Of a stretch of 64,000 nucleotides of DNA, positions 28,003-58,833 are shown in pieces. The translations under genes and the position numbers were made by a program. Where the stretch lies: assembly GCA_036008605.1 (NCBI GenBank), contig DASYNL010000045.1, forward strand, positions 67,855-131,854. The letters run 5' to 3'. The first letter of the stretch is position 1; the number at the start of each line of letters is the position of its first letter. This DNA is from Solirubrobacteraceae bacterium. GTDB taxonomy: Bacteria; Actinomycetota; Thermoleophilia; Solirubrobacterales; Solirubrobacteraceae. Below the pieces are notes generated by a model, which saw nothing but the letters and a program-made list of their open reading frames with translations, ran no database searches and was not told where the DNA came from.

Positions 28003-28917
28003 CTACTGCAGGAACTGGAGTAGTGATTCTTGGACGATGCTTGCGCCGGCGCGCAGCGCGGCCTCATAGGCAGCCTGCTCGTTGGAGTAGGCGATCGATG
28101 CCTGGGCAATACTCACGTCCTCTGTGTTGGCCAGGCTAGCGGTGATCGAGCTCTGCAGCGATTCGATACGACTCGTGGCAGTCTGCAACTGGTCGGTCAC
28201 GCTCCCGGCCGTGGCTTGCAATTGGCTCAAGCTGTCGATGCTCGATTCCAGGCTTTTCAGGTCGGTTGAGCCCAGCGCGCTGATGTCTTCGGCGCTACCG
28301 CCGCGCAAGTGTTCTGAGATCGTGCGCAGCGTGTCGAGCAGCTTGCCGTCGCCCGAGGCCTGACCGTTGCCGAGCAGCGAGGAGATGTCCGTGCTGATGT
28401 CGACTGACACGCCGGGGCCGATCGCGCGCGTGACCGTGCCGCTGTCGCCTTGGTAGGTGTCTTCGGCTCCCTGCGGGTAGGGCACGGTGGTCGTGTCGGT
28501 GCCCGAGAACACGTACTGACCCGCGTATTGCGTGTTTGCGTCCTGCTTGACGGCTTCGGTCAGCTGGTCGACCTCGGTGGCGATGCTTTCGCGATCGCTT
28601 TGATTGTTGGTGCCGGTCGAGCTTTGCACCAGCAGCTCGCGCACCGTCTGCAGCACGTTTGAGATGTTCGCCATCGCGCCGCCAGCCGTGTTCTCCCAGG
28701 AGATCCCTTCCTGGGCGTTGGTCGCATAGGAGCTCAAGCCGTCGAGCTGGCTCTGCAGGTCGATCACCTGGCTGGCGCCGTAGGGGTTGTCCGAAGGTTC
28801 GTTGATCGTCTTGCCCGAGGACAGTTCGTTCGATGTACGCTCGAGGGTGGCCAGCGAGGAGTTGATGTCGTTGAGGGTCGTGGCCGTGACCATCGCCGGC
28901 GTGATGCGTTCGGTCAT
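28003..28917 (-). CDS. flgL: Hook-associated protein 3
   Basis: ELSSGKTINEPSDNP; C-terminal AYEAALRAGASIVQESLLQFL. Confidence 0.92.
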   Translation of the reverse strand: MTERITPAMVTATTLNDINSSLATLERTSNELSSGKTINEPSDNPYGASQVIDLQSQLDGLSSYATNAQEGISWENTAGGAMANISNVLQTVRELLVQSSTGTNNQSDRESIATEVDQLTEAVKQDANTQYAGQYVFSGTDTTTVPYPQGAEDTYQGDSGTVTRAIGPGVSVDISTDISSLLGNGQASGDGKLLDTLRTISEHLRGGSAEDISALGSTDLKSLESSIDSLSQLQATAGSVTDQLQTATSRIESLQSSITASLANTEDVSIAQASIAYSNEQAAYEAALRAGASIVQESLLQFLQ

Positions 28918-28999
28918 GGGTGAGCCTCCACGGACCCGGCGAGCTCGCCGTCGCTCATAGGACAAGCTTTGGCTACTCCAAGGTGCAGACCGGGCATCG

Positions 29000-30313
29000 C
29001 TACAAACCCACCGTTCCGGTGCGCTCGATCAGCGTTTCGAGCATGCTGTCCATCGCTGTGAGTGTGCGTGCCGAGGCCTGGTAGCCGCGCTGGAAGCTGA
29101 TCAGATTTGTCATTTCTTCATCGAGCGACACGCCTGAGACGCTCTGGCGCTGGTTGTCGATCGCGGTGACTGTCGTCTGCATGTTGGCTTGCTCGTCCTT
29201 GGCCGTCTGCACACCGCTGCCGACCTGCTCGACGAGCGCCGCATAAGCCTGTTCGGCGGCCCCGCCGCGCAGCGCCGCGATCGCCTGCGCCACGTTGTTA
29301 CCCCCCGCGGCTTCGGTCGAGGATGTCTGCACCTGAGCGGCCTTCACAGCCACCTTGAGTGTGGCGGCGGTGGCGCCGGAGAAGAACGGCGTGCTCGTGT
29401 GCAGTGCGTTGACCGTGCTCGCCAGCGTGTTTGCCACGTTGTCGAGCGCCGTCTGATAGTTGTTGAGCGTCCCGGTCGGCGCCGTCAGGCCGAGCAGCGC
29501 GCCGAGCTTTCCGCCGGCAGCTTGCGTGAGTTCCTGGGGCCAGTTGACCGTCGTGCCTTCGACCAGCGGCTTGGGCGCATCGCCGAAGCTGACCGTGTCG
29601 GTGCCGTCTGGCTGCTCGCTGACTGTGACCTGCGCGAGGCTTGAGAGCTTGTCGAGCAAGAGATCGCGCCGGTCGAGCATTTCGTTCGGCTTCTGGCCCG
29701 CTTGTTCGGCGAGCTTGATCTGCCCGTTGAGCTGAGCGATCTGGTTGGCGTCGTTTTGCACTTCGCCGGAAGCTCCGGTTAGGGCCGCGTACTGCTCGCC
29801 GGCCTGGCTTGAGATCGTCGAGAGTTGCGCGCTGAGTTCGTGGAAGGTGTTTGCCAACGATTCGCCAGCGGCCACCACACCTTGCTTGGCGGCAATGCTT
29901 GTGGGGGCGTTGGCGAGATCGCTCCAGGCGCTCCAGAACGCCGAGATCTGGCTGGCAAGCCCAGAGCTCGATGGTTCGTTGAACGCCGCCTGGGCTTGGG
30001 TCAGCTCTTCGGACTGGGTACTGGCTTCGCTCAACGCGCTGTTTTGCGTGCGGTACTGCGCGTCCAGGTAGACGTTGCGCACGCGCGTGATCGTCGCGAC
30101 GCTGACGCCGGTGCCAAGCTGCGCGCCTTCACCGGTCAGCGGCGAGATCGCCGGGATCACGATCGGCTCGTTGGTCTGCAGCACCGCCCTCTGGCGCGAA
30201 TAGCCTTCGGTGTCCGAGTTGGCGATGTTGTTGCCGGTGACGTCTAGCGCCGCTTGCTCGGCGACCAGCCCGCTGAGCGCGGTTTGCAGGCCTTGCAGAG
30301 TTGGAATCGACAC
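29000..30313 (-). CDS. flgK: Hook-associated protein 1
   Basis: VTGNNIANSDTEGYSRQ; SGVSLDEEMTNLISFQRGYQASAR. Confidence 0.95.
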   Translation of the reverse strand: MSIPTLQGLQTALSGLVAEQAALDVTGNNIANSDTEGYSRQRAVLQTNEPIVIPAISPLTGEGAQLGTGVSVATITRVRNVYLDAQYRTQNSALSEASTQSEELTQAQAAFNEPSSSGLASQISAFWSAWSDLANAPTSIAAKQGVVAAGESLANTFHELSAQLSTISSQAGEQYAALTGASGEVQNDANQIAQLNGQIKLAEQAGQKPNEMLDRRDLLLDKLSSLAQVTVSEQPDGTDTVSFGDAPKPLVEGTTVNWPQELTQAAGGKLGALLGLTAPTGTLNNYQTALDNVANTLASTVNALHTSTPFFSGATAATLKVAVKAAQVQTSSTEAAGGNNVAQAIAALRGGAAEQAYAALVEQVGSGVQTAKDEQANMQTTVTAIDNQRQSVSGVSLDEEMTNLISFQRGYQASARTLTAMDSMLETLIERTGTVGL

Positions 30314-30317
30314 GGGC

Positions 30318-30869
30318 TTAGGCGCGCAGGTCGAGGACGTGCAGGTTGCCGTTTGGGCGCGCCCGCGTGATCGGCGTGGAGGAGCCGTGCGTGTCGTAGC
30401 CGGTGACTCCGTCGAGCGCCAGCACGCCCATCAGGTGGTCGAGGAAACCCAGTTCGATTTGCATCAATGCACGGTTGCAGGAGTGCTCGCGCTGCAGCTC
30501 GCGCAACAGGCCGCGCAGCTCCGCGCTCAGAGCGGAGGCACGCTCGGCGAGAGCATCGTCCATCAACGTGCACAAGCGCTCGAGCGTCACCGCCTCGGCC
30601 GCGATGCCCAGCCGCTCGCCGCTGCGAGCAAGCAGACGCGAGCGCTCCTCCTCGAGCAGCTGACGGCGGCCCATCTCCCCGCGCAGGATCCCGGCCAAGC
30701 GTACGACCGTGTCCACGTCGCGCGCACGTATCGCCTTGCCTTGCTCCAGCACGACCCCGAGCAGGCTTCGCGCCGAGCCGATTTGCGCGTCCAGGTGTGC
30801 GAGCACTTCCACGGCCAGCGCACGATCCTCGGCGAGCCCTTGGGGTGCGGCCAGCGCGGCCAAGCTCAT
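30318..30869 (-). CDS. flgN: Flagellar export chaperone FlgN
   Basis: Helical; LRELQREHSCNRALMQIELGFLDHLM; upstream of flgK. Confidence 0.75.
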   Translation of the reverse strand: MSLAALAAPQGLAEDRALAVEVLAHLDAQIGSARSLLGVVLEQGKAIRARDVDTVVRLAGILRGEMGRRQLLEEERSRLLARSGERLGIAAEAVTLERLCTLMDDALAERASALSAELRGLLRELQREHSCNRALMQIELGFLDHLMGVLALDGVTGYDTHGSSTPITRARPNGNLHVLDLRA

Positions 30870-31366
30870 GCGCTGGTGCCCCCGGTGGTGGCGGAACCGC
30901 CTGGCGGTGCGGTGACAGGTGGGTTGCTGTTTGTTGGGATTGGCGTGCTCGCGCCTGTACTTGCGCTGGTACCACCTGTCGTTGCCGCACCTACCCCGGC
31001 GCCTTGCGCGGCGGTACCTGCCAGCTGGCGAGTCATTTGAGCGGCGAGACCGAGGCCGCCCGCGCTCATCACACCGCTGGTCAGCGCCTGCGGCAACATC
31101 GAAGACAGCGGGCCGCTTGCGCCGCCGCTGCCCGGAGAGCCTTCAGTGGATTCGCCTTCCACGCCGCTTTCGCCGCCGAGGCCACTGCTCGCCGTCAGCG
31201 ATTGCGAGAGCTCTTCGACCAGCATCTGTTCGAAGGCAAGCGCTGTCTCATAGGCCTTTTGCGTGGCGGCGGAGCCTTTGCGCACCCAGGCGGGCTCGAG
31301 CGTCTGGTTGACGGCAGGCAGGTCGCTCGAGGAAAGCGGCGCGCCCGAGGACAGCGGGACGCTCAC
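30866..31366 (-). CDS. FlgJ-like rod-binding small protein
   Basis: ETALAFEQMLVEEL..GGLGLAAQM resembles the rod-binding motif; no muramidase domain. Confidence 0.6.
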   Translation of the reverse strand: MSVPLSSGAPLSSSDLPAVNQTLEPAWVRKGSAATQKAYETALAFEQMLVEELSQSLTASSGLGGESGVEGESTEGSPGSGGASGPLSSMLPQALTSGVMSAGGLGLAAQMTRQLAGTAAQGAGVGAATTGGTSASTGASTPIPTNSNPPVTAPPGGSATTGGTSA

Positions 31367-32103
31367 GACGGGCGCAGCTGGTTGGCGATCGACATCATCT
31401 GACTCTCGGTCTGGATCGCCGAGCTGCTCATCTGGTAGGCGCGTTGGGTGCTCACCATCAGCGCCATCTCCTTCGACATGTCTACGTTGGAGCCCTCCAA
31501 CGCGCCCTGACGAATCTTCGCGGCGCTCGCTTCCACGGCCTGCGGTGCGCCACTGGCCGTGGTCGGCGTCAGCGTGCCGCCGCCGCCAGCGAGCAGGTGG
31601 TCCGGCGAGCGGACGGTGACAAGCTTGATCTGGCCCAGCGTGCGCTTGCCGGCGCTCACGCTGCCGTCGGTGCCGATCTTCACCTCCTCGGCAGAGATAC
31701 CCGCCGGCAGCTTGATCGGCGGTTCGAGCTGGTTGCCTTCGGCGTCGACGATCGTGCCGTTGGCATCGACGGCGAAGCTGCCGTTGCGAGTCAACGCCGG
31801 CTGGCCGCCCGGACCCTTGACCTGGAAGTAGCCCGCGCCTTCGATCGCTAGGTCGAGCGGATCGCCGGTTTCCTGGATCGGCCCCTGGGCATGGCTGCGC
31901 CCGATCACCTGCGCGCTTGCGCCGGCGCCGATGCTCGATTCGGTGCCGGCCTCGTCAACCGCGTTGTAGAGCAGATCGCTGAAGGCGACGCGCTCGGATT
32001 GGTAGCCGGTGGTGGAGATGTTGGCGAGATCGTTTGAGACCGCGTCGAGCTGTTCCTGTTGCGCGGACATGCCTGCGGCAGCGGAATAAAGGCCTTCGAG
32101 CAT
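31363..32103 (-). CDS. flgG: Flagellar basal-body rod protein FlgG
   Basis: SNDLANISTTGY; ETGDPLDLAIEGAGYFQV; TRNGSF; LEGSNVDMSKEM. Confidence 0.85.
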   Translation of the reverse strand: MLEGLYSAAAGMSAQQEQLDAVSNDLANISTTGYQSERVAFSDLLYNAVDEAGTESSIGAGASAQVIGRSHAQGPIQETGDPLDLAIEGAGYFQVKGPGGQPALTRNGSFAVDANGTIVDAEGNQLEPPIKLPAGISAEEVKIGTDGSVSAGKRTLGQIKLVTVRSPDHLLAGGGGTLTPTTASGAPQAVEASAAKIRQGALEGSNVDMSKEMALMVSTQRAYQMSSSAIQTESQMMSIANQLRPS

Positions 32104-32107
32104 CAGT

Positions 32108-32265
32108 GATCCATCCCGTGAATTCGCTGTGGGTTTGCCGCTTGTATGTGCGTGATCTGACGGTTCACGGTATCCGTGCGCGTACTGGTAGTACGTGTGC
32201 GGACAGCGGGGACCGTCAGACGCGTGCAGACGCCGGGAAACACCAGTGGATTTACGAGATGGACC
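32108..32265. repeat. Long imperfect inverted repeat between flgF and flgG
   Basis: gatccatcccgtgaattc/ggatttacgagatggacc, tctgacggttc/ggaccgtcaga and ccgtgcgcgtac/gtacgtgtgcgg nest into one hairpin. Confidence 0.7.
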
Positions 32266-32266
32266 A

Positions 32267-32962: not shown

Positions 32963-32973
32963 GTCCCCCCGGG

Positions 32974-36798: not shown

Positions 36799-36825
36799 TA
36801 AAGTTTTCGCGAAAGACGCCGATCA
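36799..36825 (+). promoter_or_regulatory. Sigma-28 promoter for flaG-fliD-fliS
   Basis: TAAA-N15-GCCGATCA. Confidence 0.8.
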
Positions 36826-38681: not shown

Positions 38682-39061
38682 GCAACCTCACCGCAACGCC
38701 GAACGCCTACCGCCAGGGGGCGGTACTTGCCGCCACGCCGGGGGAGCTTGTCGTGATGCTCTACGACGGCGCACGGCGCTTCTTGCGCCAGGCAAGTGTC
38801 GCGATGCGCGAGGGGCAGGTCGAGCGCGCGCACAACACGCTGCGTCGGGCGGAGTTGATCATTGCCCACCTAGACGGCATCCTCGACTTCGAACAAGGCG
38901 AAGTCTCCGATCGCCTGCATGCGATCTACCAGTTCTGCTTGGCGCATCTCAACAGCGCGCGCCACGATCAGGATGCCGACAAGCTCGAAAAAGTCAGCGA
39001 GCTGTTGGGCGAGCTGCGCGAGGCGTGGGCACAAGTCGCCGAGGAGATCGCCCGCGCGTGA
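38678..39061 (+). CDS. fliS: Flagellin chaperone FliS
   Basis: AYRQGAVLAATPGELVVMLYDGA; LHAIYQF; ELREAWAQV. Confidence 0.93.
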   Translation: MSNLTATPNAYRQGAVLAATPGELVVMLYDGARRFLRQASVAMREGQVERAHNTLRRAELIIAHLDGILDFEQGEVSDRLHAIYQFCLAHLNSARHDQDADKLEKVSELLGELREAWAQVAEEIARA

Positions 39062-39096
39062 GCGAGATCTCGCTCATTCGCGATCCCGCTGATCGA

Positions 39097-39123
39097 CATG
39101 CCCCGCGCGCACGCGGGGGGCAC
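39097..39123. repeat. REP-like palindrome, copy 2
   Basis: catgccccgcgcgcacgcggggggcac. Confidence 0.6.
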
Positions 39124-39128
39124 ACCAA

Positions 39129-39482
39129 ATGAGAGACGACCCGCACACCGGCGACAGCCACACCTCTCTGCGCCCCTATGAGGCGATCCACGAGCACGCC
39201 GAGCTCGAACTGGAGCTGGTGGGACGCGGCGAAATAGAGTCTCTTGGCGAACTCGGCGAGCGTTGGGAGCAGCTGACACGCGACCTGCCTGCTCGCCCAC
39301 CCGCGGCGGCGGCGGCGTTGTTGCGCCAAGCCCGGCTGATCCACGAGCGCACACGCATCGAGCTGATTCGCCTACGCGAGTCGCTGTTGGCCGAGATCGG
39401 TACCAGCGCGCGTGCGCGGCGCGCGGCCGACGGCTATGGGGGACAGCTTGCGCGCCGTCCCCGCCTGGATCGCAGCGCCTGA
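39129..39482 (+). CDS. FliT-like protein
   Basis: Helical; follows fliS; C-terminal RRAADGY..LDRSA. Confidence 0.5.
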   Translation: MRDDPHTGDSHTSLRPYEAIHEHAELELELVGRGEIESLGELGERWEQLTRDLPARPPAAAAALLRQARLIHERTRIELIRLRESLLAEIGTSARARRAADGYGGQLARRPRLDRSA

Positions 39483-39531
39483 CCAGAATCGCCGCATTGG
39501 GTCCAGTGCATCCAGTCCGGCTAGAAAGATC

Positions 39532-39657
39532 TTTCAAAATGAGCTGCACGGCTAACACCCCCTTTGCGTGACAAGGAGGTTTTATTTAGGTACCTAACCT
39601 TTACCTGAGCCTCCGCATAAGGGGGGTGTTGGGTGGTTCATTGAAAATGAGCTGCAC
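39532..39657. promoter_or_regulatory. AT-rich structured element A upstream of flgB
   Basis: Palindrome TTAGGTACCTAA (39586-39597) inside IR aacaccccctttgcg/cgcataaggggggtgtt, flanked by direct repeat AAAATGAGCTGCAC; homologous to 51403-51519. Confidence 0.6.
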
Positions 39658-39730
39658 ATTCCCAGCTGCACAACCCCGGCGTTCACGGCACACGGACGCA
39701 CCGCCGCATGGCTCAGTTTGGAAGACCCTC

Positions 39731-39757
39731 TAAAGACCCAGGCAGGGCGGCCGATCA
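39731..39757 (+). promoter_or_regulatory. Sigma-28 promoter for the flgB operon
   Basis: TAAA-N15-GCCGATCA. Confidence 0.8.
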
Positions 39758-39770
39758 CCAGGGACGGTAT

Positions 39771-40124
39771 ATGGCTCCCATTGACTCGACCCAGCAACTG
39801 CTCGAGGCCGCGATGCGCGGCTCCTGGCAGCGCGAGACTGCCCTGACAAGCAATATTGCCAACGCCGATACACCCGGCTACAAACGCCAGGAAGTCAACT
39901 TCGAGTCCGAGCTGCAGAGCGCGATGAACAGCGGCGAACCGCTGGAACAAGTTGAGTTTCAGACCGAAGTGCAGCCCGAAGAGGACGGTCCAAACGGCAC
40001 CAGCGTCAGCGTCGATCAGGAATCGGCGAAGCTCGCCGAAAACGGGCTCGACTATCAGGCCCTCACACAGGTGCTCGGAGCCCGCAACAGCATCCTGAGC
40101 GCGGCGATCGGGGTCACCTCGTGA
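39771..40124 (+). CDS. flgB: Flagellar rod protein FlgB
   Basis: LTSNIANADTPGYKRQEVNFE; DGPNGTSVSVDQE. Confidence 0.9.
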   Translation: MAPIDSTQQLLEAAMRGSWQRETALTSNIANADTPGYKRQEVNFESELQSAMNSGEPLEQVEFQTEVQPEEDGPNGTSVSVDQESAKLAENGLDYQALTQVLGARNSILSAAIGVTS

Positions 40125-40125
40125 A

Positions 40126-40217
40126 CGCGGCCGACACGTCGCGTCATGGATGCCCCAGTCGATGTCCCCTCGTAGGCGCAGCCGACACGTCGCATTGTCG
40201 ATGCCCCAGTCGATGTC
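40126..40217. repeat. 51-bp tandem duplication between flgB and flgC
   Basis: cgc(g/a)gccgacacgtcgc..gatgccccagtcgatgtc at 40126 and 40177. Confidence 0.85.
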
Positions 40218-40248
40218 AGCCACCGAGCACGACCGACGTGGGGGCCTG

Positions 40249-40698
40249 ATGGGGCTCTTCGAAGCAATCGGCATCGCCGGCAGCGGACTGACCGCCGAGC
40301 GCGTGCGCATGGACGTGACCGCCGAGAACCTCGCCAACGCCGACACCACGAAGGCCGCGGGCGGACAGCCCTACCAGCGCCAGGAGGTCGAGCTCGCACA
40401 GGCCAGCGAAGGTGGCTTCGGCAGCGCGCTTTCTGGAGCTATCCAGCAAGCAGAAAGCTCGGCCCCGGCCGGCGGTGTCCAAGTAACGGGGATCGTCAGC
40501 GACGCCACTCCCGACCAGCAGGTCTACGACCCCGGCAACCCCGAAGCCGACGCCCAGGGCTACGTGAAGATGCCGAACATCAGCACCGTCACCGAAATGA
40601 CCGACCTGATCTCCGAGTCGCAGTCCTATCAGTCCGATGTGACTGCGATGCAGACCGCCAAGTCGATGTTCAGCGCGACGCTCGGGGTGCTCAAATGA
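40249..40698 (+). CDS. flgC: Flagellar rod protein FlgC
   Basis: SGLTAERVRMDVTAENLANADTT; YDPGNPEADAQGYVKMPN. Confidence 0.94.
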   Translation: MGLFEAIGIAGSGLTAERVRMDVTAENLANADTTKAAGGQPYQRQEVELAQASEGGFGSALSGAIQQAESSAPAGGVQVTGIVSDATPDQQVYDPGNPEADAQGYVKMPNISTVTEMTDLISESQSYQSDVTAMQTAKSMFSATLGVLK

Positions 40699-41198: not shown

Positions 41199-41258
41199 TC
41201 GGTGGCGCTCGCACCACCGCTTTCACAGCTCATGACCTTCGGATCGCGGGCCTAGGCT

Positions 41259-44525: not shown

Positions 44526-46024
44526 GCGAGTCTTCCGATTTGGACGTTCCCCCGCGCGCGCGGGGGGCATCGCCTTTTCAGAGCACACCACCCGGCGCGC
44601 TGCTGGCAAGCGCCACACAAGCCGTGCGCGAGGCCGACCTTGCGCGGCGCCACGGTTTTGTAAGCAACCTGATCGGCCTGATCATCGAGGTGACAGGACT
44701 TCAGGCGGAGATCGGAGAGGTGTGTCTCATCGATAGCCGGATTCCTGCCGAGGTGGTCGGGTTCCGCGACGGGCGCACCCTGCTGATGCCTTTGGGCGAG
44801 CTGCACGGGATCGGCCCTGGCACACGCGTGCTCGCAACCGGCGCCCCCTTTCGTGTCGCCGTCGGTCCCGGCCTGCTCGGACGCGTCCTCGACGGACTGG
44901 GAGTGCCGTTGGATGAGCTTCCAGCACCGTCGGGAGTCGAGCGCTCCACGATCGCCCCGCCGCCAAGCGCGCTCTCCAGACCCCGCATCACCGAGCGCGT
45001 CGGGCTGGGCGTGCGCGCGCTCGACTCGCTCGTGCCCTGCGGGCGCGGGCAGCGACTCGGCATCTTCGCCGGCTCCGGCGTCGGCAAGTCCTCGCTGATG
45101 GGCATGATCGCCCGCTCGACAAGCGCTCAAGTGAACGTGATCGCGCTCGTCGGCGAGCGTGGACGCGAGGTACGCGAGTTCATCGAGCGCGACCTCGCAG
45201 GCGCGCTCGAGCGCTCTGTCGTCGTCGTGGCCACCTCCGACCAACCTGCGCTTGTGCGCATCAAGGCCGCTTTCACCGCGACGACGATCGCCGAGCACTT
45301 CCGCGACCAGGGCCACGACGTGCTCTTGATGATGGACTCGGTCACGCGCTTTGCGATGGCCCAGCGCGAGGTGGGCCTCGCGATCGGCGAGCCGCCCGCC
45401 ACACGCGGCTACACACCGAGCGTGTTCGCTCTGCTTCCGCGTCTGCTGGAGCGCGCCGGCACGAGTACAAGCGGTTCGATTACCGGGCTGTACACGGTGC
45501 TGGTCGACGGCGACGACATGAACGAGCCGATCGCCGACGCGACGCGCGCGATCCTCGACGGGCACGTCGTGCTCACCCGCTCGCTCGCCCACGCCGGTCA
45601 CTACCCCGCGATCGACGTCTTGCAAAGTGTCTCGCGCTTGGTCGGCGAGATCGTCTCCCCCGAGGTGGCGAGCGCCGCACAGCGATTGCGCGCCGCGCTG
45701 GCCGTGCTGCACGAGAAGGAAGACCTCGTCGCGATCGGGGCCTACCAGCCGGGCAGCGATCCTTTGCTCGACATGGCGCTTGCGCATCGTGCCTCGATCG
45801 AGGACTTCTTGCGCCAGAGCGTGGACGAGCGCAGCACGCCCGAGCAAGCCGACGCACAACTGCTCGAACTGGCCGCCTCGCTTGCGGGTGAGGCCGTATT
45901 CAGCCCCGGGGACACTCCCGATGGCGAGGAAGTAACCGCCGAGCGAATCGATCCAAGCGCCGCGCCGGCGGTGAATGCCGTGGCCGAGGTACCGGCCATA
46001 CCGGCGCTTGGGTTGAGCATCTAA
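44522..46024 (+). CDS. fliI: Flagellar export ATPase FliI
   Basis: GIFAGSGVGKS, GERGREVREF, DSVTRFAMAQRE, GEPPATRGY, HYPAIDVLQSVSR. Confidence 0.96.
   Translation: MSESSDLDVPPRARGASPFQSTPPGALLASATQAVREADLARRHGFVSNLIGLIIEVTGLQAEIGEVCLIDSRIPAEVVGFRDGRTLLMPLGELHGIGPGTRVLATGAPFRVAVGPGLLGRVLDGLGVPLDELPAPSGVERSTIAPPPSALSRPRITERVGLGVRALDSLVPCGRGQRLGIFAGSGVGKSSLMGMIARSTSAQVNVIALVGERGREVREFIERDLAGALERSVVVVATSDQPALVRIKAAFTATTIAEHFRDQGHDVLLMMDSVTRFAMAQREVGLAIGEPPATRGYTPSVFALLPRLLERAGTSTSGSITGLYTVLVDGDDMNEPIADATRAILDGHVVLTRSLAHAGHYPAIDVLQSVSRLVGEIVSPEVASAAQRLRAALAVLHEKEDLVAIGAYQPGSDPLLDMALAHRASIEDFLRQSVDERSTPEQADAQLLELAASLAGEAVFSPGDTPDGEEVTAERIDPSAAPAVNAVAEVPAIPALGLSI
44549..44572. repeat. REP-like palindrome, copy 3 (inside the fliI N-terminus)
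   Basis: cccccgcgcgcgcggggggcatcg. Confidence 0.65.
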
Positions 46025-46030
46025 AATCGA

Positions 46031-46058
46031 CGATGCCCCCCGCGCGCGCGGGGGGCAT
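46031..46058. repeat. REP-like palindrome, copy 4 (just after fliI)
   Basis: cgatgcccccgcgcgcgcgggggggcat. Confidence 0.7.
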
Positions 46059-46171
46059 GCCCAAATCCGCATACCATGCACCGTGCCTGCCTGCGCCCTT
46101 CAGGGTGTCCCCCGCGCTGGGGGATCGCCCCCGGCGAAAGCCGACATCGCAGCTGTCGCGCAGGCTAGACC

Positions 46172-46198
46172 TAAAGAAAGGCGCGCCGCGTCCGATAA
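46172..46198 (+). promoter_or_regulatory. Sigma-28 promoter for fliJ
   Basis: TAAA-N15-TCCGATAA. Confidence 0.75.
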
Positions 46199-46205
46199 CC
46201 GGACC

Positions 46206-46664
46206 GTGAATGGACCCGTTTTCCGCTTTCGGCTCGAGCGCGTGCGCGCACTGCGCGAGCGCAAAGAGCAGCAGGCCCAGCAGGAGCTGGCACAGGCGAT
46301 CGCGTCGCGTACGAGCACTGCGGCCGAGCTACGCGCCGCCGAAGCTCATCTAGAGCAGGCGCACTCAGACCACCGGGCCGAAGCTGTCGAGGTCCAAACG
46401 CTCAATGCGGATGAACTGGTCGCGCGCCAAGCCTTCCTCGAGCGCATCGAGGCACAGCGCGGAGCGTACGCCCAAGAGCTCCAGCAGCGCGAGGCCGTCG
46501 TAGCCGAGCACGACGCCAAGCTCACTGCCGCGGCCAGCGACCACGAGATGCTCAAGCGCCTTTCCGAGCGCCGCCGCGGCGAGCACGAGCGTGCCGCCAC
46601 TAGCCGCGAACAGGGGGAGCTAGACGAGATGACCGTGGCGCGCTTCGGCCGAGGCGAGACATGA
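46206..46664 (+). CDS. fliJ: Flagellar export protein FliJ
   Basis: FRFRLERVRALRERKEQQAQQEL; coiled coil; EQGELDE. Confidence 0.88.
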   Translation: MNGPVFRFRLERVRALRERKEQQAQQELAQAIASRTSTAAELRAAEAHLEQAHSDHRAEAVEVQTLNADELVARQAFLERIEAQRGAYAQELQQREAVVAEHDAKLTAAASDHEMLKRLSERRRGEHERAATSREQGELDEMTVARFGRGET

Positions 46665-49260: not shown

Positions 49261-49321
49261 GCCACCCCATCCACCCAGCAACCGAAGGTTGTCCTGTGAG
49301 CGAACGAAAGGACAGAGAACC

Positions 49322-50213: not shown

Positions 50214-50279
50214 GCGCGACGGCAACCACGACAACGGCTGGACCTCACAGAGGGGGCCGCGAAAGGAAGGGCAGTCACG

Positions 50280-54144: not shown

Positions 54145-54152
54145 GAGGCAAA

Positions 54153-54542: not shown

Positions 54543-54560
54543 CTTGGAAGGTGAGCACAG

Positions 54561-55988
54561 TTGAGCCCGAAGAGCCGCGCCGGCGCTTCCAAGGACGAGC
54601 CACAAAGCTCCAAGAAGCCCGCGTCCTCTGGCACAGACGAGTCGGCCGGCTCCAAGAAGCGCACGCCGGCCGCCAAGGCGGGGGCAGCCGCCGGCAAGGC
54701 CCGCGGCGGTGCAGCCAAGGGTGAGCCTGACGGCGCACAGGCGGGAGAGACAGGCACACAGGCCGACACTTCAGACGCTGCTGAAGCAAGCAGCCAGGCG
54801 GGCGGGCGCATACGCACGCTCGACTTCTCCCAGCCGACCAAGTTCACGACCGAGATCAGACGCCGCATCTCGAGCGCGATCGAACAGTTCTGCGAGGCGC
54901 TGTCGGGCCGTTTGACGAACGAGTTGTCAGTGGAAGTCGAGCTCAGCGTCGCCGAGGTCGACCAGCACACTTGGGCGGCCGCCAAGGCACGGCTGGCCGC
55001 GGACGCCGTCGCAGTTGCCGTCGAAGCAAAGGCGATCGAGCGTCAGATGCTGCTCAGCGTCGAGCAGCCGCTCTTGCTGCAAGCGCTCGAATGCCTGCTC
55101 GGCGGCCAGGCAGCCCAGGCACCGTCAGAGCGCCACCTGACCGACATCGACTGGGTACTCGCAAGAGGCCTCCTCGATGGGATCGTCGCCGATCTCTCAA
55201 GCTCCTGGAACGAGCTCGGCGGCCCACAACTGACGCGCGGCGAGGTCGATTTGGAGGCCGACGCCGGCGTCTTTGCACCCGTCGGCGAGCCCACCTTCGC
55301 AGTCACCCTCGCGAGCAGGATCGACGGCCAGTCGGCCACGATGTCCTTGTTGATTCCCTGGGCGGCGGTCGAGCCGGTCTCCGAGAGCATCCGCGGCGGC
55401 GGCGGTCCGCCGCTTACGGGCGACGTGCGCGATCCCGATGCGTTGCGGCGCGGTCTCGCCCGCGCCCAGATACTGCTGCGCGCCGAGGTCGGCTCGGCGC
55501 AGATGCCGATCGAGCAGATGCTGGGACTCGTCCCGGGCACGCTCGCCGAGCTACAGGGTCGCGCCGATGACGGCGTGTGGCTATTCGCCGAAGGCGTGCT
55601 GCTCGGACGCGGAAAGCCCGGACGTTCTGGTACGCGACGGGCGATCAAGCTGCACTCCATAAGCGATACGCCGACGCGCGCCGACACTTACGCAAAGCTT
55701 GGCCGAGCCGAGCTCGAGCGTGCACGGGCGCATGTGGACGGCACGGGCGAGAGCGCCGAGGGCCGAGCGATCTTGCGCAGCATCTTCGTACGCGTATGGG
55801 CCGAGCTGGGACGAACGCACCTCCCGCTCAGAGACGCCGTCGAGCTCGCACCGGGCGCTGTCGTCGAGCTCGATCAAGCCGCCGAGGCGCCGGTCGAGCT
55901 GTTCGTCAACGGGCTGTGCTTTGCCAACGGCACGCTCGTGGTGACATCAGACGGCGGCTGGGGCGTGCAGGTCTCAGCGCTCGTCTGA
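54561..55988 (+). CDS. fliM: FliM with an extra C-terminal SpoA/FliN-like domain
   Basis: RTLDFSQPTKF; LLQALECLLGG; ERHLTDID; two SpoA domains (LRAEVG..GKPGRSG and VWAELGRT..ELFVNG). Confidence 0.82.
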   Translation: MSPKSRAGASKDEPQSSKKPASSGTDESAGSKKRTPAAKAGAAAGKARGGAAKGEPDGAQAGETGTQADTSDAAEASSQAGGRIRTLDFSQPTKFTTEIRRRISSAIEQFCEALSGRLTNELSVEVELSVAEVDQHTWAAAKARLAADAVAVAVEAKAIERQMLLSVEQPLLLQALECLLGGQAAQAPSERHLTDIDWVLARGLLDGIVADLSSSWNELGGPQLTRGEVDLEADAGVFAPVGEPTFAVTLASRIDGQSATMSLLIPWAAVEPVSESIRGGGGPPLTGDVRDPDALRRGLARAQILLRAEVGSAQMPIEQMLGLVPGTLAELQGRADDGVWLFAEGVLLGRGKPGRSGTRRAIKLHSISDTPTRADTYAKLGRAELERARAHVDGTGESAEGRAILRSIFVRVWAELGRTHLPLRDAVELAPGAVVELDQAAEAPVELFVNGLCFANGTLVVTSDGGWGVQVSALV

Positions 55989-56032
55989 GGTTTGCCGGAG
56001 GAACCGGCGAAAAGTTATGCACCCTTTTGAGT

Positions 56033-56069
56033 TTACAATAGTAACTACTTTATGTAGTTACTATTGTAA
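56033..56069. promoter_or_regulatory. Perfect 16-bp AT-rich inverted repeat (operator or hairpin)
   Basis: TTACAATAGTAACTAC-TTTAT-GTAGTTACTATTGTAA. Confidence 0.7.
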
Positions 56070-56174
56070 GTCATAGAAAATTTATATACCTCCCTACGAC
56101 TCCTTGCCCTAAAAAGTCGTCAAGCCGGGAGCCGACCGACTTTGCACCTGGGCGCATCCGTCGACACCAGACCC

Positions 56175-56201
56175 TCAAGACCTGCCCCTTCGGGCCGATA
56201 A
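56175..56201 (+). promoter_or_regulatory. Sigma-28 promoter for the fliO-fliPQR-flhBAF operon
   Basis: TCAA-N15-GCCGATAA. Confidence 0.78.
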
Positions 56202-56234
56202 CCGGGGGCGACTCTTCCTCGGAGTCGTCCCTCG

Positions 56235-57026
56235 ATGACTAAGTTGACCCTTCCCCGTGCGGCCACGCAAGTGGTCGCCTTGCTGTGTTGCTGCCTGCTC
56301 GTGTGGGCCAGTCCCGCGTCGGCTTTCACTGCAGCCAACACCAAGAAGGGCACAGGCGAACAGACGCCGCTGAACCTTGGCTCGCCCAGCCCCGGGTCAC
56401 ACCCGAGCTCCGGCGGAGCCAGCATCGTGCGTACGATCGTTGGCCTGGCGATCGTGCTTGGCGTGATCTGGGGGCTTTCGTGGATCTTGCGCCAAGTCAA
56501 GGGAAGGCGCGATCCGCGTGTTGCCGCAACCGGCCTGACCAGCGTCGCCGCGTTGCCGCTCAGCTCCGGGCGCTCGGTGCACCTGGTCAGAGCCGGCAAC
56601 GACTATTTGCTGCTGGGTAGCGCCGAGCACGGCCTGATGCCGATCCACCGCTACACCGAGCAGCAGGCGCTCGAAGCGGGCTTGCTCTCGCCCGAGGAGC
56701 CCATGCAGCCGCGCAAACGCCGCATCAACCTCGGTCTGCTCGCCCCGCCCAGCTCGCAAGTTGACGATCTTCGGACGGGCTGGGCGGGGCCACATCAGGA
56801 AGGCGAGCATTGGTTGAGCGCACACGAGGGCAGTCGCTGGCCTGAGCGATCGGCAACCGCGCGGCCCGTGGCTCCACCCATGGCGGTGCTTCCGCGGAGC
56901 ACGCCTGAGCGACCCCGCCCCACGAGAACGCTCGAATCCGGCGAGCGGCAGAGCGACCCGATGCACATGCCCTCGGTGTCGTCGAGCCTGATCGAACGCC
57001 TGCGCGAACTGACGGTGCGCCGTTGA
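56235..57026 (+). CDS. fliO: Flagellar biosynthesis protein FliO
   Basis: TIVGLAIVLGVIWGLSWILR; LPLSSGRSVHLVRAGNDYLLLGSAE. Confidence 0.82.
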   Translation: MTKLTLPRAATQVVALLCCCLLVWASPASAFTAANTKKGTGEQTPLNLGSPSPGSHPSSGGASIVRTIVGLAIVLGVIWGLSWILRQVKGRRDPRVAATGLTSVAALPLSSGRSVHLVRAGNDYLLLGSAEHGLMPIHRYTEQQALEAGLLSPEEPMQPRKRRINLGLLAPPSSQVDDLRTGWAGPHQEGEHWLSAHEGSRWPERSATARPVAPPMAVLPRSTPERPRPTRTLESGERQSDPMHMPSVSSSLIERLRELTVRR

Positions 57027-57661
57027 ACCTCAGCTCCAGCAACTCCGTCCAAATCCTGCTGCTGGTCGCCGGCCTCACGCTCGTGCCGGCGATCCTCTTC
57101 ACGGTTACCGGCTTCAGCCGCATCTTGATCGTGCTCGGCTTCATCCGCTCTGCGATCGGCACCACCACCGAGCCGCCCAATCAGGTGCTCGTCGGGATCG
57201 CGCTGTTCTTGACGATCTTCGTGATGGCGCCCACCGTCGCCGCGATCAAGCGGGAGTCGGTCCAGCCGCTGATGGCCCATCAGATCAACACTGTCACCGC
57301 GCTCGAGCGCGCCGAGGAACCGATGCGCGAATTCATGTTCCGCCAAACGCGAGCACAGGACATCGCGCTGTTCGTCAACCTCGCCAAAGCAAAGACGCCG
57401 CACACTCGCGCCGAAGTCCCGACCGAGGTGCTGATCCCGGCCTTCATCGTCTCCGAGCTCAACATCGCGTTTCAAATCGGCTTCTTGATCTTCCTGCCGT
57501 TCCTGATCATCGACCTGATCGTCTCGGCGACGCTGATGAGCATGGGCATGATCATGCTGCCGCCGACCTTCATCTCCTTGCCTTTCAAGATCCTGCTGTT
57601 CGTGCTCGTCGATGGCTGGGATCTGGTCATAAGAGCACTCGTCCAGAGCTTTCACACCTAG
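57023..57661 (+). CDS. fliP: Export gate protein FliP
   Basis: PPNQVLVGIALFLTIFVMAP; LIPAFIVSEL; MLPPTFISLPFKILLFVLVDGW. Confidence 0.96.
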   Translation: MNLSSSNSVQILLLVAGLTLVPAILFTVTGFSRILIVLGFIRSAIGTTTEPPNQVLVGIALFLTIFVMAPTVAAIKRESVQPLMAHQINTVTALERAEEPMREFMFRQTRAQDIALFVNLAKAKTPHTRAEVPTEVLIPAFIVSELNIAFQIGFLIFLPFLIIDLIVSATLMSMGMIMLPPTFISLPFKILLFVLVDGWDLVIRALVQSFHT

Positions 57662-57674
57662 GAGGCGTCGTGCC

Positions 57675-57947
57675 GTGAACCAGGACACCGTCGTCAACCT
57701 CGCTTCCCAGGCCATGAGCCTGGCGCTGAAGATCGCCGGACCGTTGCTGATCGTCGCGCTCGTCGCCGGGCTGGCGGTCAGCATCTTCCAGGCGGTCACA
57801 CAGATCCAAGAGCAAAGCCTCACGCTGATCCCAAAGATCATCGGCGTCGCCGCCGTGATGATCGTGCTCGGACCTTGGATGCTAGGCCAGCTCGTCGCCT
57901 ACACGACCGCTCTGTATACATCGATCCCCACGATGGTCGGCTCGTGA
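57675..57947 (+). CDS. fliQ: Export gate protein FliQ
   Basis: GLAVSIFQAVTQIQEQSLTLIPKI. Confidence 0.95.
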   Translation: MNQDTVVNLASQAMSLALKIAGPLLIVALVAGLAVSIFQAVTQIQEQSLTLIPKIIGVAAVMIVLGPWMLGQLVAYTTALYTSIPTMVGS

Positions 57948-58053
57948 ATCGAAGGAGCGACCAGCCCCCCGCGTCGGGCGTGCCTGTGGGCGCAGCGCCT
58001 CATGCGTCAGGCATGCCCGTAAGTGCACCGTTCCGGCGGGCAAGGGCGCACAC

Positions 58054-58833
58054 GTGAACGAACTGCTCAGGAAGCTGGCCGCCGGCGAGCTCGTCGGCTT
58101 CATCCTGGTGCTGGCACGCGTCACGCCGCTGTTCATCGTCGCGCCGCTGTTCTCCTCCTCACTGGTCCCCGCACGGGTGCGCGGCATCATCGCCGTCGGC
58201 ATCTCGATCGGGTTGACGCCAATCGCCATGCACGGCCAGCACATACCGAGCCAGCCGCTGGTCGTAGCCGAGCTCGTGATCGAGGGGTTGCTGGTCGGCC
58301 TCGGTTTTGCATTTACGCTCGCGATCCTGCTGGCGGCCCTCGAAACTGCTGGCGCGATGATCGACGTCGTCTCGGGCTTCTCTTACGGAGAACTGATCAA
58401 CCCGATGACCGGTCAGAACGGCGCCGTCATCTCGCGCTTCTACTCACTGGTCGGGACGATGGTCTTCCTGATGATCCATGGCGAAGCATGGACGTTGCGC
58501 GGGCTTGGGCGCACCTTCCAACTCGTTCCCCTGACAAGCGGCCCGCGCATGCCCTCGCTGATCGGCGGCGCCGAGCAGGCATTCGCCGGCCTCTTCACCT
58601 CGGCGCTTGAGATCGCCGGACCCGTGCTGGTCGCGCTGCTGATAACCGACGTGGCATTCGGCGTCGTCTCGCGCGTCGTGCCGCAGTTGAACGTGTTCGC
58701 CGTCGGCTTCCCGGTAAAGGTGGCGGTGGCTCTGCTCGTCGTCGCTGCCGCGCTGCCGTTCACGGCCAACTGGATCTCAGAACAAATGTCGGTGAGCGTG
58801 GGTGCAGCGCTGGGCGCGCTGCACGTGGCCTGA
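58054..58833 (+). CDS. fliR: Export gate protein FliR
   Basis: LARVTPLFIVAPLF; VPQLNVFAVGFPVK. Confidence 0.94.
   Translation: MNELLRKLAAGELVGFILVLARVTPLFIVAPLFSSSLVPARVRGIIAVGISIGLTPIAMHGQHIPSQPLVVAELVIEGLLVGLGFAFTLAILLAALETAGAMIDVVSGFSYGELINPMTGQNGAVISRFYSLVGTMVFLMIHGEAWTLRGLGRTFQLVPLTSGPRMPSLIGGAEQAFAGLFTSALEIAGPVLVALLITDVAFGVVSRVVPQLNVFAVGFPVKVAVALLVVAAALPFTANWISEQMSVSVGAALGALHVA

Follow-up and report, generated by a model that had tools for sequence, protein, structure and literature searches.

How neighbouring flagellar genes might stay translationally coupled after inserted DNA has pushed their junctions apart is the question raised by a gene cluster in a 64,000-nucleotide stretch of DNA (the window) from a Solirubrobacteraceae bacterium. 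A preliminary description had reported seven mini-ORFs, or bridges, each with its start on the upstream stop codon or at most 3 nt away and its stop placed likewise at the downstream start. All seven read as described (positions are those of the window):

28914–28997, minus strand: flgK-flgL bridge ORF, 27 codons
32103–32267, minus strand: flgF-flgG bridge ORF, 54 codons, TAGTG start and TGATG end
39058–39132, plus strand: fliS-fliT bridge ORF, 24 codons, GTGA start and ATGA end
40121–40249, plus strand: flgB-flgC bridge ORF, 42 codons, GTGA start and TGATG end
41202–41255, plus strand: fliE-fliF bridge ORF, 17 codons
49257–49325, plus strand: fliK-flgD bridge ORF, 22 codons, GTGA start and GTGA end
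57944–58057, plus strand: fliQ-fliR bridge ORF, 37 codons, GTGA start and GTGA end

Four bridges start as GTGA on the upstream TGA (fliS, flgB, fliK and fliQ), the others as TAGTG at flgF, TAGcgATG at flgK and TGAtcgGTG at fliE. Their ends are ATGA or GTGA on the downstream start at flgL, fliT, flgD and fliR, TGATG at flgG and flgC, and TAGgctGTG at fliF. NCBIfam profiles served to check which genes these are and where the downstream ones start; the profiles of FlgL, FlgG, FlgC, FlgD and FliR start at most a few residues from the start codons first proposed. The name "fliT" (39129–39482) is putative, as this ORF matched no NCBIfam family.

At two junctions the bridge begins where relatives start the downstream gene. 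The flgK-flgL ATG, 2 nt past the flgK TAG, occupies the flgL start position of relatives, and its TGA overlaps the flgL ATG (ATGA); the fliE-fliF GTG, 3 nt past the fliE TGA, lies at the position of their fliF ATG, and its TAG, 3 nt upstream of the fliF GTG, is in the fliF frame. Several spacers had been called tandem repeats or palindromes, which is true of four: flgB-flgC is a 51-nt unit present twice, with a 37-nt repeat recurring at a 51-nt period; fliS-fliT has two hairpins, a perfect palindrome of 18 nt and, at 39098–39122, a copy of the REP-like palindrome dispersed in the genome; flgF-flgG crosses a long, strong hairpin (z = -2.98) and part of a dispersed repeat of ~360 nt; and fliQ-fliR, bordered by GTGAA..GTGAA, holds a 30–33-nt repeated unit and a 12-bp hairpin. 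The fliK-flgD bridge carries a 39-nt insert between GTGAGC repeats, upstream of the conserved Shine-Dalgarno sequence GAAAGGAC. The earlier statement that the peptides are unrelated is close to true, but the flgK-flgL and fliK-flgD spacers have a common 22-nt motif in the same reading frame, with no further occurrence in the genome.

Four other junctions of the cluster are relevant:

46033–46209, plus strand: fliI-fliJ, looser eighth bridge, 58 codons
44522–44623, plus strand: fliH-fliI junction, with a GTG overlapping the fliH TGA in the fliI frame
50214–50279, plus strand: TIGR02530-flgE spacer, unbridged in this genome
53649–53706, plus strand: motB-fliL spacer, unbridged

The fliI-fliJ ORF starts at an ATG within a REP-like palindrome, 8 nt past the fliI TAA, and its TGA overlaps the fliJ GTG at 46206; it falls outside the 3-nt rule and is not among the seven. 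At fliH-fliI the open frame from the GTG into fliI runs through a REP-like palindrome (44549–44574). Relatives have a -4 junction here and a FliI that exceeds the one called in this genome by about 17 residues, and the insertion is taken up as a FliI N-terminal extension, with no separate bridge. The two exceptions named at the outset, motB-fliL and TIGR02530-flgE, are indeed unbridged; the hairpin of the latter (GGCYGGACCTC..GAGGAGGCC) and its strong Shine-Dalgarno sequence (GAAAGGAAG, duplex -14.3 kcal/mol) are both kept in 10/10 genus genomes compared. Sigma-28-like motifs (36799, 39731 and 56110) are confined to unbridged spacers. The seven bridges had been set against nine spacers, a subjective denominator; spacers longer than 40 nt number about 16 in the cluster.

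That the ORFs are chance products of a high-GC genome with rare stops, or else programmed-frameshift or tunable-stoichiometry elements, is scarcely credible. Openness alone is common: the three spacers with NTGA at both ends are open in 61–86% of shuffles (coding flanks and spacer length fixed) and are in this respect unremarkable. The improbable part is start, stop and phase in combination, which together lie far beyond chance. With spacer content alone randomised, 2.3 bridges are expected among the nine spacers of the preliminary description (probability of at least seven, 1.5e-7); with content and length modulo 3 randomised, 0.86 are expected against seven seen among 15 spacers of 40–250 nt (P ~6e-8), so that in the proposed comparison with shuffled spacers the bridges exceed chance. 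Across ten genomes of the genus, 6.8 bridges are expected in 114 spacers and 31 are seen (P ~2e-16); of the 22 spacers with NTGA at both ends, 16 are bridged, against about 22% expected. Copy-number variation of the 30–51-nt units could in principle modulate coupling, but the unit expansions maintain phase and do not switch it, and slippery heptamers, alternative-frame ORF fusions or other frame-linking signals were not noticed in passing; the earlier suggestion of tuning or frameshifting is thus left unsupported.

The genome at large, suggested as a source of a null rate, was also compared. Bridging was found in 81 of 572 same-strand gaps of 50–170 nt (14%), a rate that, like the other genome-wide figures, comes from a crude in-house gene caller with imprecise start calls. 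The flagellar spacers exceed it (7/15, P = 0.003; 7/9, P = 3e-5), but bridging also occurs genome-wide: NTGA..NTGA bridges number 47 against 15.5 expected, and where the start and stop contexts are in place 85% of the frames are open, the baseline being 46%. Bridges occur at nuoG-nuoH, nuoH-nuoI, gatA-gatB and gap-pgk, for which profile alignment verified the downstream starts. The effect is genome-wide and not flagellum-specific.

We consider it probable that inserted DNA has been kept as an uninterrupted relay ORF, its peptide irrelevant, which preserves translational coupling between the genes. In the ancestor, the stop and start codons of these gene pairs would have overlapped or abutted (NTGA, TGATG, 1–3 nt apart) and so coupled their translation; in the lineage of this uncultured soil actinobacterium the junctions were pushed 40–165 nt apart by tandem duplication or expansion of short units, by dispersed palindromic repeats and by pieces of a larger repeat. 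The start codon beside the upstream stop is often the downstream gene's orphaned ancestral start, opening a frame that crosses the insert and closes on or beside the new start of that gene. Ribosomes ending the upstream gene may restart at once and translate the hairpin-rich spacer, and termination of the bridge may lead to a second restart or expose the downstream Shine-Dalgarno sequence. Because ribosomes would be relayed through the spacer, coupling would survive and the spacer RNA would never be left untranslated. Selection would target three features only, namely a start at the upstream stop, the lack of an in-frame stop and a spacer length in the phase that brings the ORF to its end at the following start, and the amino-acid sequence would drift freely.

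Comparison of orthologous junctions, also proposed earlier, revealed that relatives have tight junctions at these places (NTGA, TGATG or gaps of 2–3 nt) and that the spacers are expansions specific to the lineage. In nine genomes of the same genus, where most of these junctions are tight, flgK-flgL stands at 2 to 7 nt or -4, fliS-fliT mostly at -4, flgB-flgC at TGATG (-1) in seven, fliE-fliF at 2–3 nt in four, fliK-flgD at 18–23 nt in five and fliQ-fliR at -4 in three. Among 11 sister species (FlgC 95–99% identical) flgK-flgL occurs in 82-, 76- and 43-nt versions (9/9 expanded versions bridged), flgF-flgG at 163, 70 and 25 nt (all bridged) or as a tight -1 junction, flgB-flgC at 121, 124, 127 and 73 nt (bridged, the last with one unit fewer) and in one broken 74-nt form, and fliK-flgD at 61, 58, 106 and 22 nt, all bridged. 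The 67-nt bridged fliS-fliT form is common to G042 and G046, and a 60-nt bridged fliE-fliF spacer to 11 of 12 clade genomes. Clade lengths of fliQ-fliR are 106, 103 and 73 nt (the last three times), all bridged, with -4 in five species. Several seeming exceptions consist of mini-ORFs coupled in a chain: two in the 104-nt fliE-fliF spacer of G050 and in a 102-nt fliQ-fliR spacer, three in the 143-nt fliK-flgD spacer of G051. The bridges persist across the 11 sister species, with length variants in phase in 12/17 cases (P = 0.002). A difference of +/-1 nt breaks roughly one in four homologous spacers (e.g. flgB-flgC at 74 nt; fliO-fliP at 54 and 56 nt); the bridge is therefore not strictly required.

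The same comparison bears on a quite improbable alternative, that the ORFs are an unselected mutational by-product. Tandem duplication over an overlapping junction fuses the first codons of the downstream gene to the last codons of the upstream one; each piece is open in the frame it came from, and young duplications would resemble bridges until they decay. There are fresh cases: the 25-nt flgF-flgG spacer of G041 and G049 reads MLE (the FlgG start), then ..GGA* (the FlgF end), the G050 fliE-fliF spacer has a 44-nt duplication, and some relatives' flhB-flhA spacers repeat the unit GCCTC-GTGAGC/GTGAAC. Against this, none of the seven spacers of this genome has detectable flank similarity (all P > 0.2) and GC content by codon position is flat, which points to old or unrelated sequence that is nevertheless open; the ORF is kept in spacers at 64–92% identity; and duplication predicts no phase bias, as opposed to that seen in the length variants above and in the wider sample below.

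It is very improbable that the ORFs code for genuine micro-proteins belonging to the flagellar or export apparatus. Short peptide motifs do recur in some groups (ERQRTHGGS before motB; GHPTPGRQA..LGGPA upstream of fliR in other species), but they coincide with Shine-Dalgarno sequences or hairpin arms, ORF length at one junction ranges from 9 to 74 codons, and close relatives lack the insertions. Peptide constraint is absent: substitutions are not concentrated at third positions (307/423/361 by codon position in the sister species; 281/335/280 in 80 species), and some 75–80% of codon changes alter the residue (synonymous to non-synonymous, 212:637 and 137:520). The GC3 signature is likewise absent, bridges genome-wide having 0.64/0.64/0.66 GC by codon position versus 0.69/0.45/0.79 in real short genes.

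In 80 Solirubrobacterales species, bridging is specific to certain junctions. It was found in 19/19 expansions at motA-motB and in the majority at fliO-fliP, fliQ-fliR, fliR-flhB and flhB-flhA; expanded spacers at motB-fliL (0/42), fliM-fliO (0/61) and fliL-fliN (0/10) had none. As species share ancestry, raw counts overstate independence, and distinct lengths were counted, a partial correction for kinship. At fliO-fliP, fliQ-fliR and flhB-flhA, ancestrally NTGA-overlapping, 43/62 distinct lengths equal 1 modulo 3 (P = 7.5e-9), the phase in which the ORF runs out exactly at the following start, compared with 40/115 at control junctions. The in-phase spacers are open in the bridge frame in 57/58 cases against 34.9 expected (P = 5e-13), and in the other two sense frames in 35 and 31, as chance predicts. 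Stop codons are avoided in the bridge frame only; the excess is absent from the two control frames and from control junctions.

Lineage-specific expansion, in-frame length change with peptide drift, phase bias and bridge-frame stop avoidance support the earlier proposal that selection preserves coupling through insertions. From this pattern we infer translation of the ORFs, with a benefit through termination-reinitiation coupling and/or RNA unfolding; RNA unfolding, Rho protection or avoidance of out-of-frame read-through would leave the same footprint as termination-reinitiation. It is conceivable, but rather unlikely, that the ORFs are selected for something other than a ribosome relay. Ribosomes on the spacer might avert Rho-dependent polarity or termination at inserted GC hairpins, or those starting at the orphaned ancestral start might be kept from crossing the downstream start out of frame. 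Rho loads on untranslated RNA, and polarity on such RNA is established (PMC12548453); the inserts are often rich in C and poor in G (G002, G009, G022) or have terminator-like palindromes, and would be harmful if untranslated. Bridged junctions also retain good Shine-Dalgarno sequences, so that restart by the same ribosome may be unneeded. In the flagellar set complementarity is stronger at bridged than at unbridged junctions (-9.75 vs -6.26 kcal/mol); the bridge is thus not a simple substitute for a missing ribosome-binding site, and the genes downstream might initiate independently. On the other side, the ORFs end precisely on or at most 6 nt from the downstream start, and bridges occur only at ancestrally tight junctions, with none at same-operon junctions that have ancestral Shine-Dalgarno gaps; both are expected under coupling and not required for simple ribosome coverage.

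The relay reading can be compared with three known systems. As with REP/BIME extragenic palindromes, about 88 copies of a GC-rich palindrome, GGCCGATGCCCCCCGCGCGCGCGGGGGGCATCGCC, are scattered over the genome, three of them inside the flagellar operon (39098, 44549 and 46031). Unlike those elements, only one of the seven bridges contains it, and all three operon copies lie in sense-strand open frames (the fliS-fliT bridge, the FliI N-terminus and the looser fliI-fliJ ORF). Translational coupling is described as efficient at -4 to +3 nt and mostly lost past 30–40 nt (PMC12548453), and a synthetic ORF for a nonsense peptide just upstream is reported to raise translation of the next gene (PMC13255528). 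In the NTGA/TGATG coupling and "delivery" ORFs covered by these two sources, the stop/start geometries are identical to those found here at both mini-ORF ends, function lies in translating the ORF and not in its product, as would be the case here, and a Shine-Dalgarno sequence is often embedded near the ORF 3' end. Natural delivery ORFs are described as mostly upstream ORFs at the message 5' end, whereas those of this cluster are coupled at both ends and would form a relay from one gene to the next, in some cases through two or three ORFs in series.

By analogy, the closest precedent for relay ORFs is that of the mycobacterial MIRU ORFs. The host here belongs to the Thermoleophilia (Solirubrobacterales), not to Mycobacterium. 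In contrast to MIRUs, the flagellar spacers are not one mobile family, being mutually unrelated save for one REP-like copy and one ~360-nt-repeat fragment, and some related spacers clearly stem from local junction duplication. Comparative evidence of selection (phase bias, frame-specific stop avoidance and junction specificity) is available here and does not appear in the MIRU literature as summarised in PMC12548453. According to that summary, the MIRU ORF is coupled at -4 to the gene lying where the unit was inserted (Supply et al. 1997). Both are short in-operon inserts at gene junctions with ORF ends coupled to both neighbours (-4 spacing), both vary in the tandem copy number of short units (here 51 nt at flgB-flgC, 39–45 nt at fliK-flgD and 30–33 nt at fliQ-fliR), and in both the arrangement is thought to let an insert sit with little effect on expression.

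The source draft genome comprises 3.1 Mb with a GC content of 64.6%; the window corresponds to C45:67855-131854, and NCBIfam profiles indicated that the flagellar cluster in the window is complete.

Genes of the flagellar cluster recognized with NCBIfam profiles
Minus strand: WhiG/FliA-type sigma factor, flgF, flgG, two unnamed ORFs, flgK, flgL, fliW, csrA
Plus strand, first part: fliD, fliS, unnamed ORF ("fliT"), flgB, flgC, fliE, fliF, fliG, fliH, fliI, fliJ
Plus strand, middle: lytic transglycosylase, fliK, flgD, TIGR02530 protein, flgE, motA, motB, fliL
Plus strand, end: fliN, fliM, fliO, fliP, fliQ, fliR, flhB, flhA

Most of the gene names in the preliminary description were recovered with these profiles, the exception being "fliT", an ORF without any family match; its starts for flgL, flgG, flgC, flgD and fliR agree with the profile alignments to a few residues. 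The seven mini-ORFs, all re-read in the sequence, are present precisely as it described them, in the flgK-flgL, flgF-flgG, fliS-fliT, flgB-flgC, fliE-fliF, fliK-flgD and fliQ-fliR spacers, each between same-strand flagellar genes. Such a bridge runs from the upstream stop to the downstream start, on these codons or within 3 nt of them. Four of the seven begin with GTGA overlapping the upstream TGA, four end with ATGA/GTGA overlapping the downstream start and two end in TGATG; the start of the flgK-flgL bridge and both ends of the fliE-fliF bridge lie 2–3 nt from the neighbouring codons. Translational coupling works efficiently at spacings between -4 and +3 nt and largely disappears past 30–40 nt (PMC12548453), and the stop-start spacing at every hand-over of the seven bridges falls within this efficient range. 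Codon-change counts and GC1/2/3 gave a negative result for small proteins, the bridge ORFs having neither a synonymous excess nor a coding GC3.

Open frames come cheap at 65% GC, and the three spacers with NTGA (a -4 stop-start overlap) at both ends are still open in 61–86% of dinucleotide shuffles that preserve the coding flanks and the spacer length. What chance rarely supplies is three features at once: a start codon at the upstream stop, a length in the right phase, and a stop codon at the downstream start. The excess reported earlier, 7 bridges among the 9 spacers longer than ~50 nt and lacking a sigma-28 promoter, compares with 2.3 expected when spacer content was shuffled (P(≥7) = 1.5e-7). 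When length modulo 3 was randomised too, 0.86 were expected versus 7 among all 15 cluster spacers of 40–250 nt (P = 6e-8).

Genes in the whole genome were taken from a purpose-written codon-usage caller with imprecise starts (flgC, flgD and fliK were among those misplaced), and the flagellar analyses therefore rest on ortholog-anchored starts. With this home-made caller, on which the genome-wide rates depend, 81/572 (14%) of same-strand gaps of 50–170 nt are bridged; against this null rate the 7/15 of the cluster is an excess (P = 0.003). The 14% is itself inflated above chance. NTGA..NTGA bridges number 47 genome-wide, versus 15.5 expected from the product of marginal frequencies; among gaps having both the start and the stop context, 60% match in frame (versus 37%) and 85% are open (versus 46%), and gaps without a start codon on the upstream stop are at baseline. 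GC by codon position is flat in the genome-wide bridge ORFs (0.64/0.64/0.66, versus 0.69/0.45/0.79 for called short genes), which sets them apart from ordinary coding sequence. Bridging is not flagella-specific, since it also occurs at the following junctions.

NTGA..NTGA bridges with profile-confirmed downstream starts on other contigs (C43, C20, C12) of this genome
C43:125994-127193 (range shared by both nuo bridges), nuoG-nuoH, 91 nt
C43:125994-127193 (the same range), nuoH-nuoI, 76 nt
C20:58308-58399, gatA-gatB, 88 nt, its frame passing through a REP-like palindrome
C12:77843-77955, gap-pgk, 109 nt

The orthologous junctions were compared in nine cluster-bearing genomes of the same genus (FliR 64–78% identical), with downstream starts assigned by nearness to the aligned N-terminus, and in a sister set comprising the cluster from 11 species (FlgC 95–99% identical). 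The spacers of this genome correspond mostly to tight junctions in the nine relatives.

Spacing at the seven junctions in same-genus relatives and in the sister clade
flgK-flgL: relatives 2, 2, -4, 4, 7 and 4 nt; clade bridged at 82, 76 and 43 nt (9/9 expansions bridged), 2 nt in one species
flgF-flgG: clade bridged at 163, 70 and 25 nt, or -1
fliS-fliT: relatives -4 for most; clade bridged at 67 nt in three, -4 or -37 in seven
flgB-flgC: relatives TGATG (-1) in seven; clade bridged at 121, 124, 127 and 73 nt, one broken at 74 (73 versus 121–127 being a 51-nt unit)
fliE-fliF: relatives TGAtcgATG in three, gap of 2–3 nt in four; clade bridged at 60 nt in 11/12
fliK-flgD: relatives 18–23 nt, with GAAAGGAC conserved; clade bridged at 61, 58, 106 and 22 nt, and a further form of 143 nt (unit-number variation)
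fliQ-fliR: relatives -4 in three; clade bridged at 106, 103 and 73 nt (the last in three; unit-number variation), -4 in five

A bridge often begins at the codon where the downstream gene started ancestrally and which the insertion has orphaned, as with TAGcgATG at flgK-flgL, TGAtcgGTG at fliE-fliF and the junctions with GTGA; a bridge may serve to prevent out-of-frame read-through from such a start. Independent expansions were found at other junctions in other same-genus genomes, many of them bridged. Overall, 31/114 spacers in the same-genus set are bridged versus 6.8 expected (P ~2e-16), as are 16/22 with NTGA at both ends.

In the sister set, additional length classes differ from this genome by multiples of three in 12/17 cases (P = 0.002); of the five cases out of phase, three consist of two or three mini-ORFs coupled in series as a chain (fliE-fliF and fliK-flgD in related genomes G050 and G051, respectively, and fliQ-fliR in related locus L024). 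The bridge peptides are not conserved. Pairwise differences amount to 307/423/361 at codon positions 1/2/3, with 212 synonymous to 637 non-synonymous codon changes, and spacer identity is 64–92% versus ~95–99% for the FlgC and FliP proteins.

A FliP scan yielded 80 Solirubrobacterales loci, which were followed from motA to flhA, counting spacers of 20–260 nt.

Bridged spacers at junctions of 80 Solirubrobacterales species
motA-motB: 19/19
fliO-fliP: 16/23
fliQ-fliR: 22/28
fliR-flhB: 23/30
flhB-flhA: 29/38
motB-fliL: 0/42
fliM-fliO: 0/61
fliL-fliN: 0/10
fliP-fliQ: 6/41

The common state of the junctions that get bridged is -4 or 1–3 nt. At three ancestrally overlapping junctions 43/62 distinct spacer lengths are 1 mod 3, the sole phase in which a bridge ORF closes at the following NTGA (P = 7.5e-9), versus 40/115 at control junctions (P = 0.40); the species share ancestry, for which counting distinct lengths corrects only in part. 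Among unique in-phase NTGA..NTGA spacers 57/58 are open versus 34.9 expected from shuffles (P = 5e-13), including all 17 of at least 100 nt (7.1 expected); in the two remaining sense frames, 35 and 31 of these 58 are open. Substitutions again fall evenly (281/335/280 by codon position; 137 synonymous to 520 non-synonymous), and shared bridge "peptide" motifs map onto the Shine-Dalgarno sequence or hairpin arms. In the motA-motB spacers of loci L032-L075, many species carry a TGATG-started mini-ORF upstream of motB; its module GAGCGCCAGCGGACYCACGGAGGGAGC (peptide ERQRTHGGS), which includes the motB Shine-Dalgarno sequence, recurs and is at times tandem-duplicated. The 130-nt fliO-fliP spacer of loci L017/L018 (genome G020) consists of four successive perfect palindromes centred on GCATGC, all spanned by a 44-codon bridge.

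The sources of the inserted sequence are mixed. By blastn against the genome and intergenic clustering, dispersed-repeat matches occur only in the fliS-fliT and flgF-flgG spacers, the other five being unique. The former contains a REP-like palindrome and the latter a fragment of a dispersed ~360-nt repeat, which may be a MITE-like or mobile-element remnant.

Dispersed repeats in the window
39098-39122, REP-like palindrome GGCCGATGCCCCCCGCGCGCGCGGGGGGCATCGCC, in fliS-fliT
44549-44574, the same palindrome, in fliH-fliI
46031-46058, the same palindrome, after fliI
2421-2451, the same palindrome
39483-39770, ~360-nt element with core CACGTACTAYCAGTACGCGC, in the fliT-flgB spacer
32104-32266, the same element
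6457-6747, the same element

The palindrome has ~88 copies genome-wide, often flanked by A- or T-runs and about half of them within ORFs (codon-usage gene calls); co-directional spacers of 50–170 nt are bridged in 6/13 cases with it versus 75/559 without. At fliH-fliI the REP-like insertion has become an in-frame part of the FliI N-terminus, and at fliI-fliJ an ORF runs from the palindrome's own ATG, 8 nt past the fliI stop, to the fliJ GTGA; both fit the same logic as the bridges. The ~360-nt element is found in 70 intergenic regions genome-wide. A further, operator-like AT-rich repeat of 65 nt, CTTTTTGTGCGATTCACTATGGTGACTACCATATGTAGCTACTAAAGTGACTTGCACAAAAATAG, is present in 14 intergenic regions, namely C45:67741-67874 (on the contig of the window, overlapping its first 20 nt) and 13 other loci.

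The flgB-flgC spacer is made of 51-nt tandem units, short direct repeats surround the inserts at fliQ-fliR (GTGAA..GTGAA) and fliK-flgD (GTGAGC..GTGAGC), and a GCCTC-GTGAGC unit is repeated in some flhB-flhA spacers of relatives. In genomes G041 and G049 the 25-nt flgF-flgG spacer reads MLE (FlgG start) and then ..GGA-stop (FlgF end), a fresh tandem duplication of the junction. Local alignments of the seven spacers with their own flanks (upstream 3' 90 nt, downstream 5' 90 nt), made to see whether the spacers are decayed duplications of these flanks, were no better than shuffles; the fliE-fliF bridge peptide suggestively echoes "PLSQL" of FliF. A single mobile family with target-site duplication at start codons was rejected as the general cause, with dispersed repeats in only 2/7 spacers. 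A 22-nt motif, CCRAAGSTTGTCCTRTGAGCGA, occurs genome-wide only at 28951-28972 (minus strand) and 49282-49303 (plus strand), in the flgK-flgL and fliK-flgD spacers, and is read in the identical frame in both bridges; TGTCCT of the fliK-flgD copy is able to pair with AGGACA of the flgD Shine-Dalgarno sequence.

Sigma-28-like motifs (TAAA-N13-17-GCCGA) lie only in unbridged spacers.

Sigma-28-like matches
36799-36822, upstream of the ORF preceding fliD
39731-39754, upstream of flgB
56110-56135, upstream of fliO

These matches suggest at least three internal promoters in the plus-strand cluster. The seven bridges contain no sense-strand terminator-like site and no sigma-70-like promoter, and known RNA families are absent from the spacers (Rfam, E ≤ 1). 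Strong RNA structure is not a shared feature, as flgF-flgG (z = -3.0) and fliS-fliT (z = -1.7) are the sole spacers with a notable score. Both exceptions named at the outset hold: motB-fliL is bridged in no species of the 80-species scan, and the TIGR02530-flgE spacer (50214-50279) is unbridged, carrying instead a hairpin and a strong Shine-Dalgarno sequence. The latter spacer is probably a site of independent initiation or of regulation. Its hairpin (GGCYGGACCTC..GAGGAGGCC) and the GAAAGGAAG that follows are conserved, with the strong Shine-Dalgarno sequence, in 10/10 genus genomes compared (including loci L001-L018) and form a candidate cis-regulatory RNA for translation of the hook protein; csrA and fliW belong to the same cluster.

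Four features make up the footprint (a start codon at the upstream stop, a frame free of stops, a length in the correct phase and an unconstrained peptide), which appears only at ancestrally coupled junctions, as expected if the spacer must be translated with translation ending at the next start. Coupling may proceed through ribosomes that restart or scan, or because structure near the next ribosome-binding site is unfolded (PMC12548453), and, according to PMC13255528, placing a synthetic ORF for a nonsense peptide directly upstream raises downstream translation. The bridge as a substitute for a missing Shine-Dalgarno sequence was rejected: anti-SD complementarity is stronger at bridged than at unbridged junctions. 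Miscalled unbridged starts may account for part of the genome-wide difference. Since bridged junctions keep good Shine-Dalgarno sequences, we favour, on the sequence evidence, a relay with two roles, in which the bridge ORF would hand ribosomes back to the next start and its translation would melt inserted hairpins. Untranslated RNA favours Rho-dependent polarity (PMC12548453), and protection against Rho, like prevention of out-of-frame read-through from an orphaned start, may explain the bridges instead of the relay. Beyond the two-role relay, it is conceivable, if rather unlikely, that Solirubrobacterales possess a general class of selected "relay ORFs", non-coding spacers arising from junction duplications and short-unit expansions and translated, whose copy number and length would set hand-over efficiency and so let them tune, as evolvable rheostats, the subunit stoichiometry of membrane complexes (MotA/B, the FliPQR-FlhBA export gate, NADH dehydrogenase).

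The usual basis for inferring translational coupling is gene spacing, with reporter demonstrations in a few model species. Natural insertions constitute a replicated evolutionary experiment: in ~90 species, tight junctions that were pushed apart persist chiefly where stop and start are rejoined by a frame that is open and in the right phase, while the peptide drifts. These data amount to evidence, on a population scale, of selection for ribosome hand-over (or at least for continuous translation) at motA-motB, the export-gate genes, nuo, gatAB and gap-pgk, with no such selection at neighbouring junctions of the same operon that have their own ribosome-binding sites. Annotators are warned on two counts: mini-ORFs of this kind are not genes for proteins, and "intergenic" spacers of high-GC operons may be translated. 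The bridges also supply natural designs for insulating sequence inserted into operons.

The closest known case is the mycobacterial MIRU ORF, which shares with the bridges its place between co-directional operon genes, its doubly coupled ORF and its unit-number variation. MIRUs are one dispersed repeat family, whereas the bridge spacers are mutually unrelated and partly local duplications; the bridges appear to act like the MIRU ORF yet to be no MIRU. A short ORF serving only to deliver ribosomes is already an accepted concept; the new elements are the lineage (Thermoleophilia), the mixed origins of the spacers, and comparative evidence of junction-specific selection on the frame and not the peptide.
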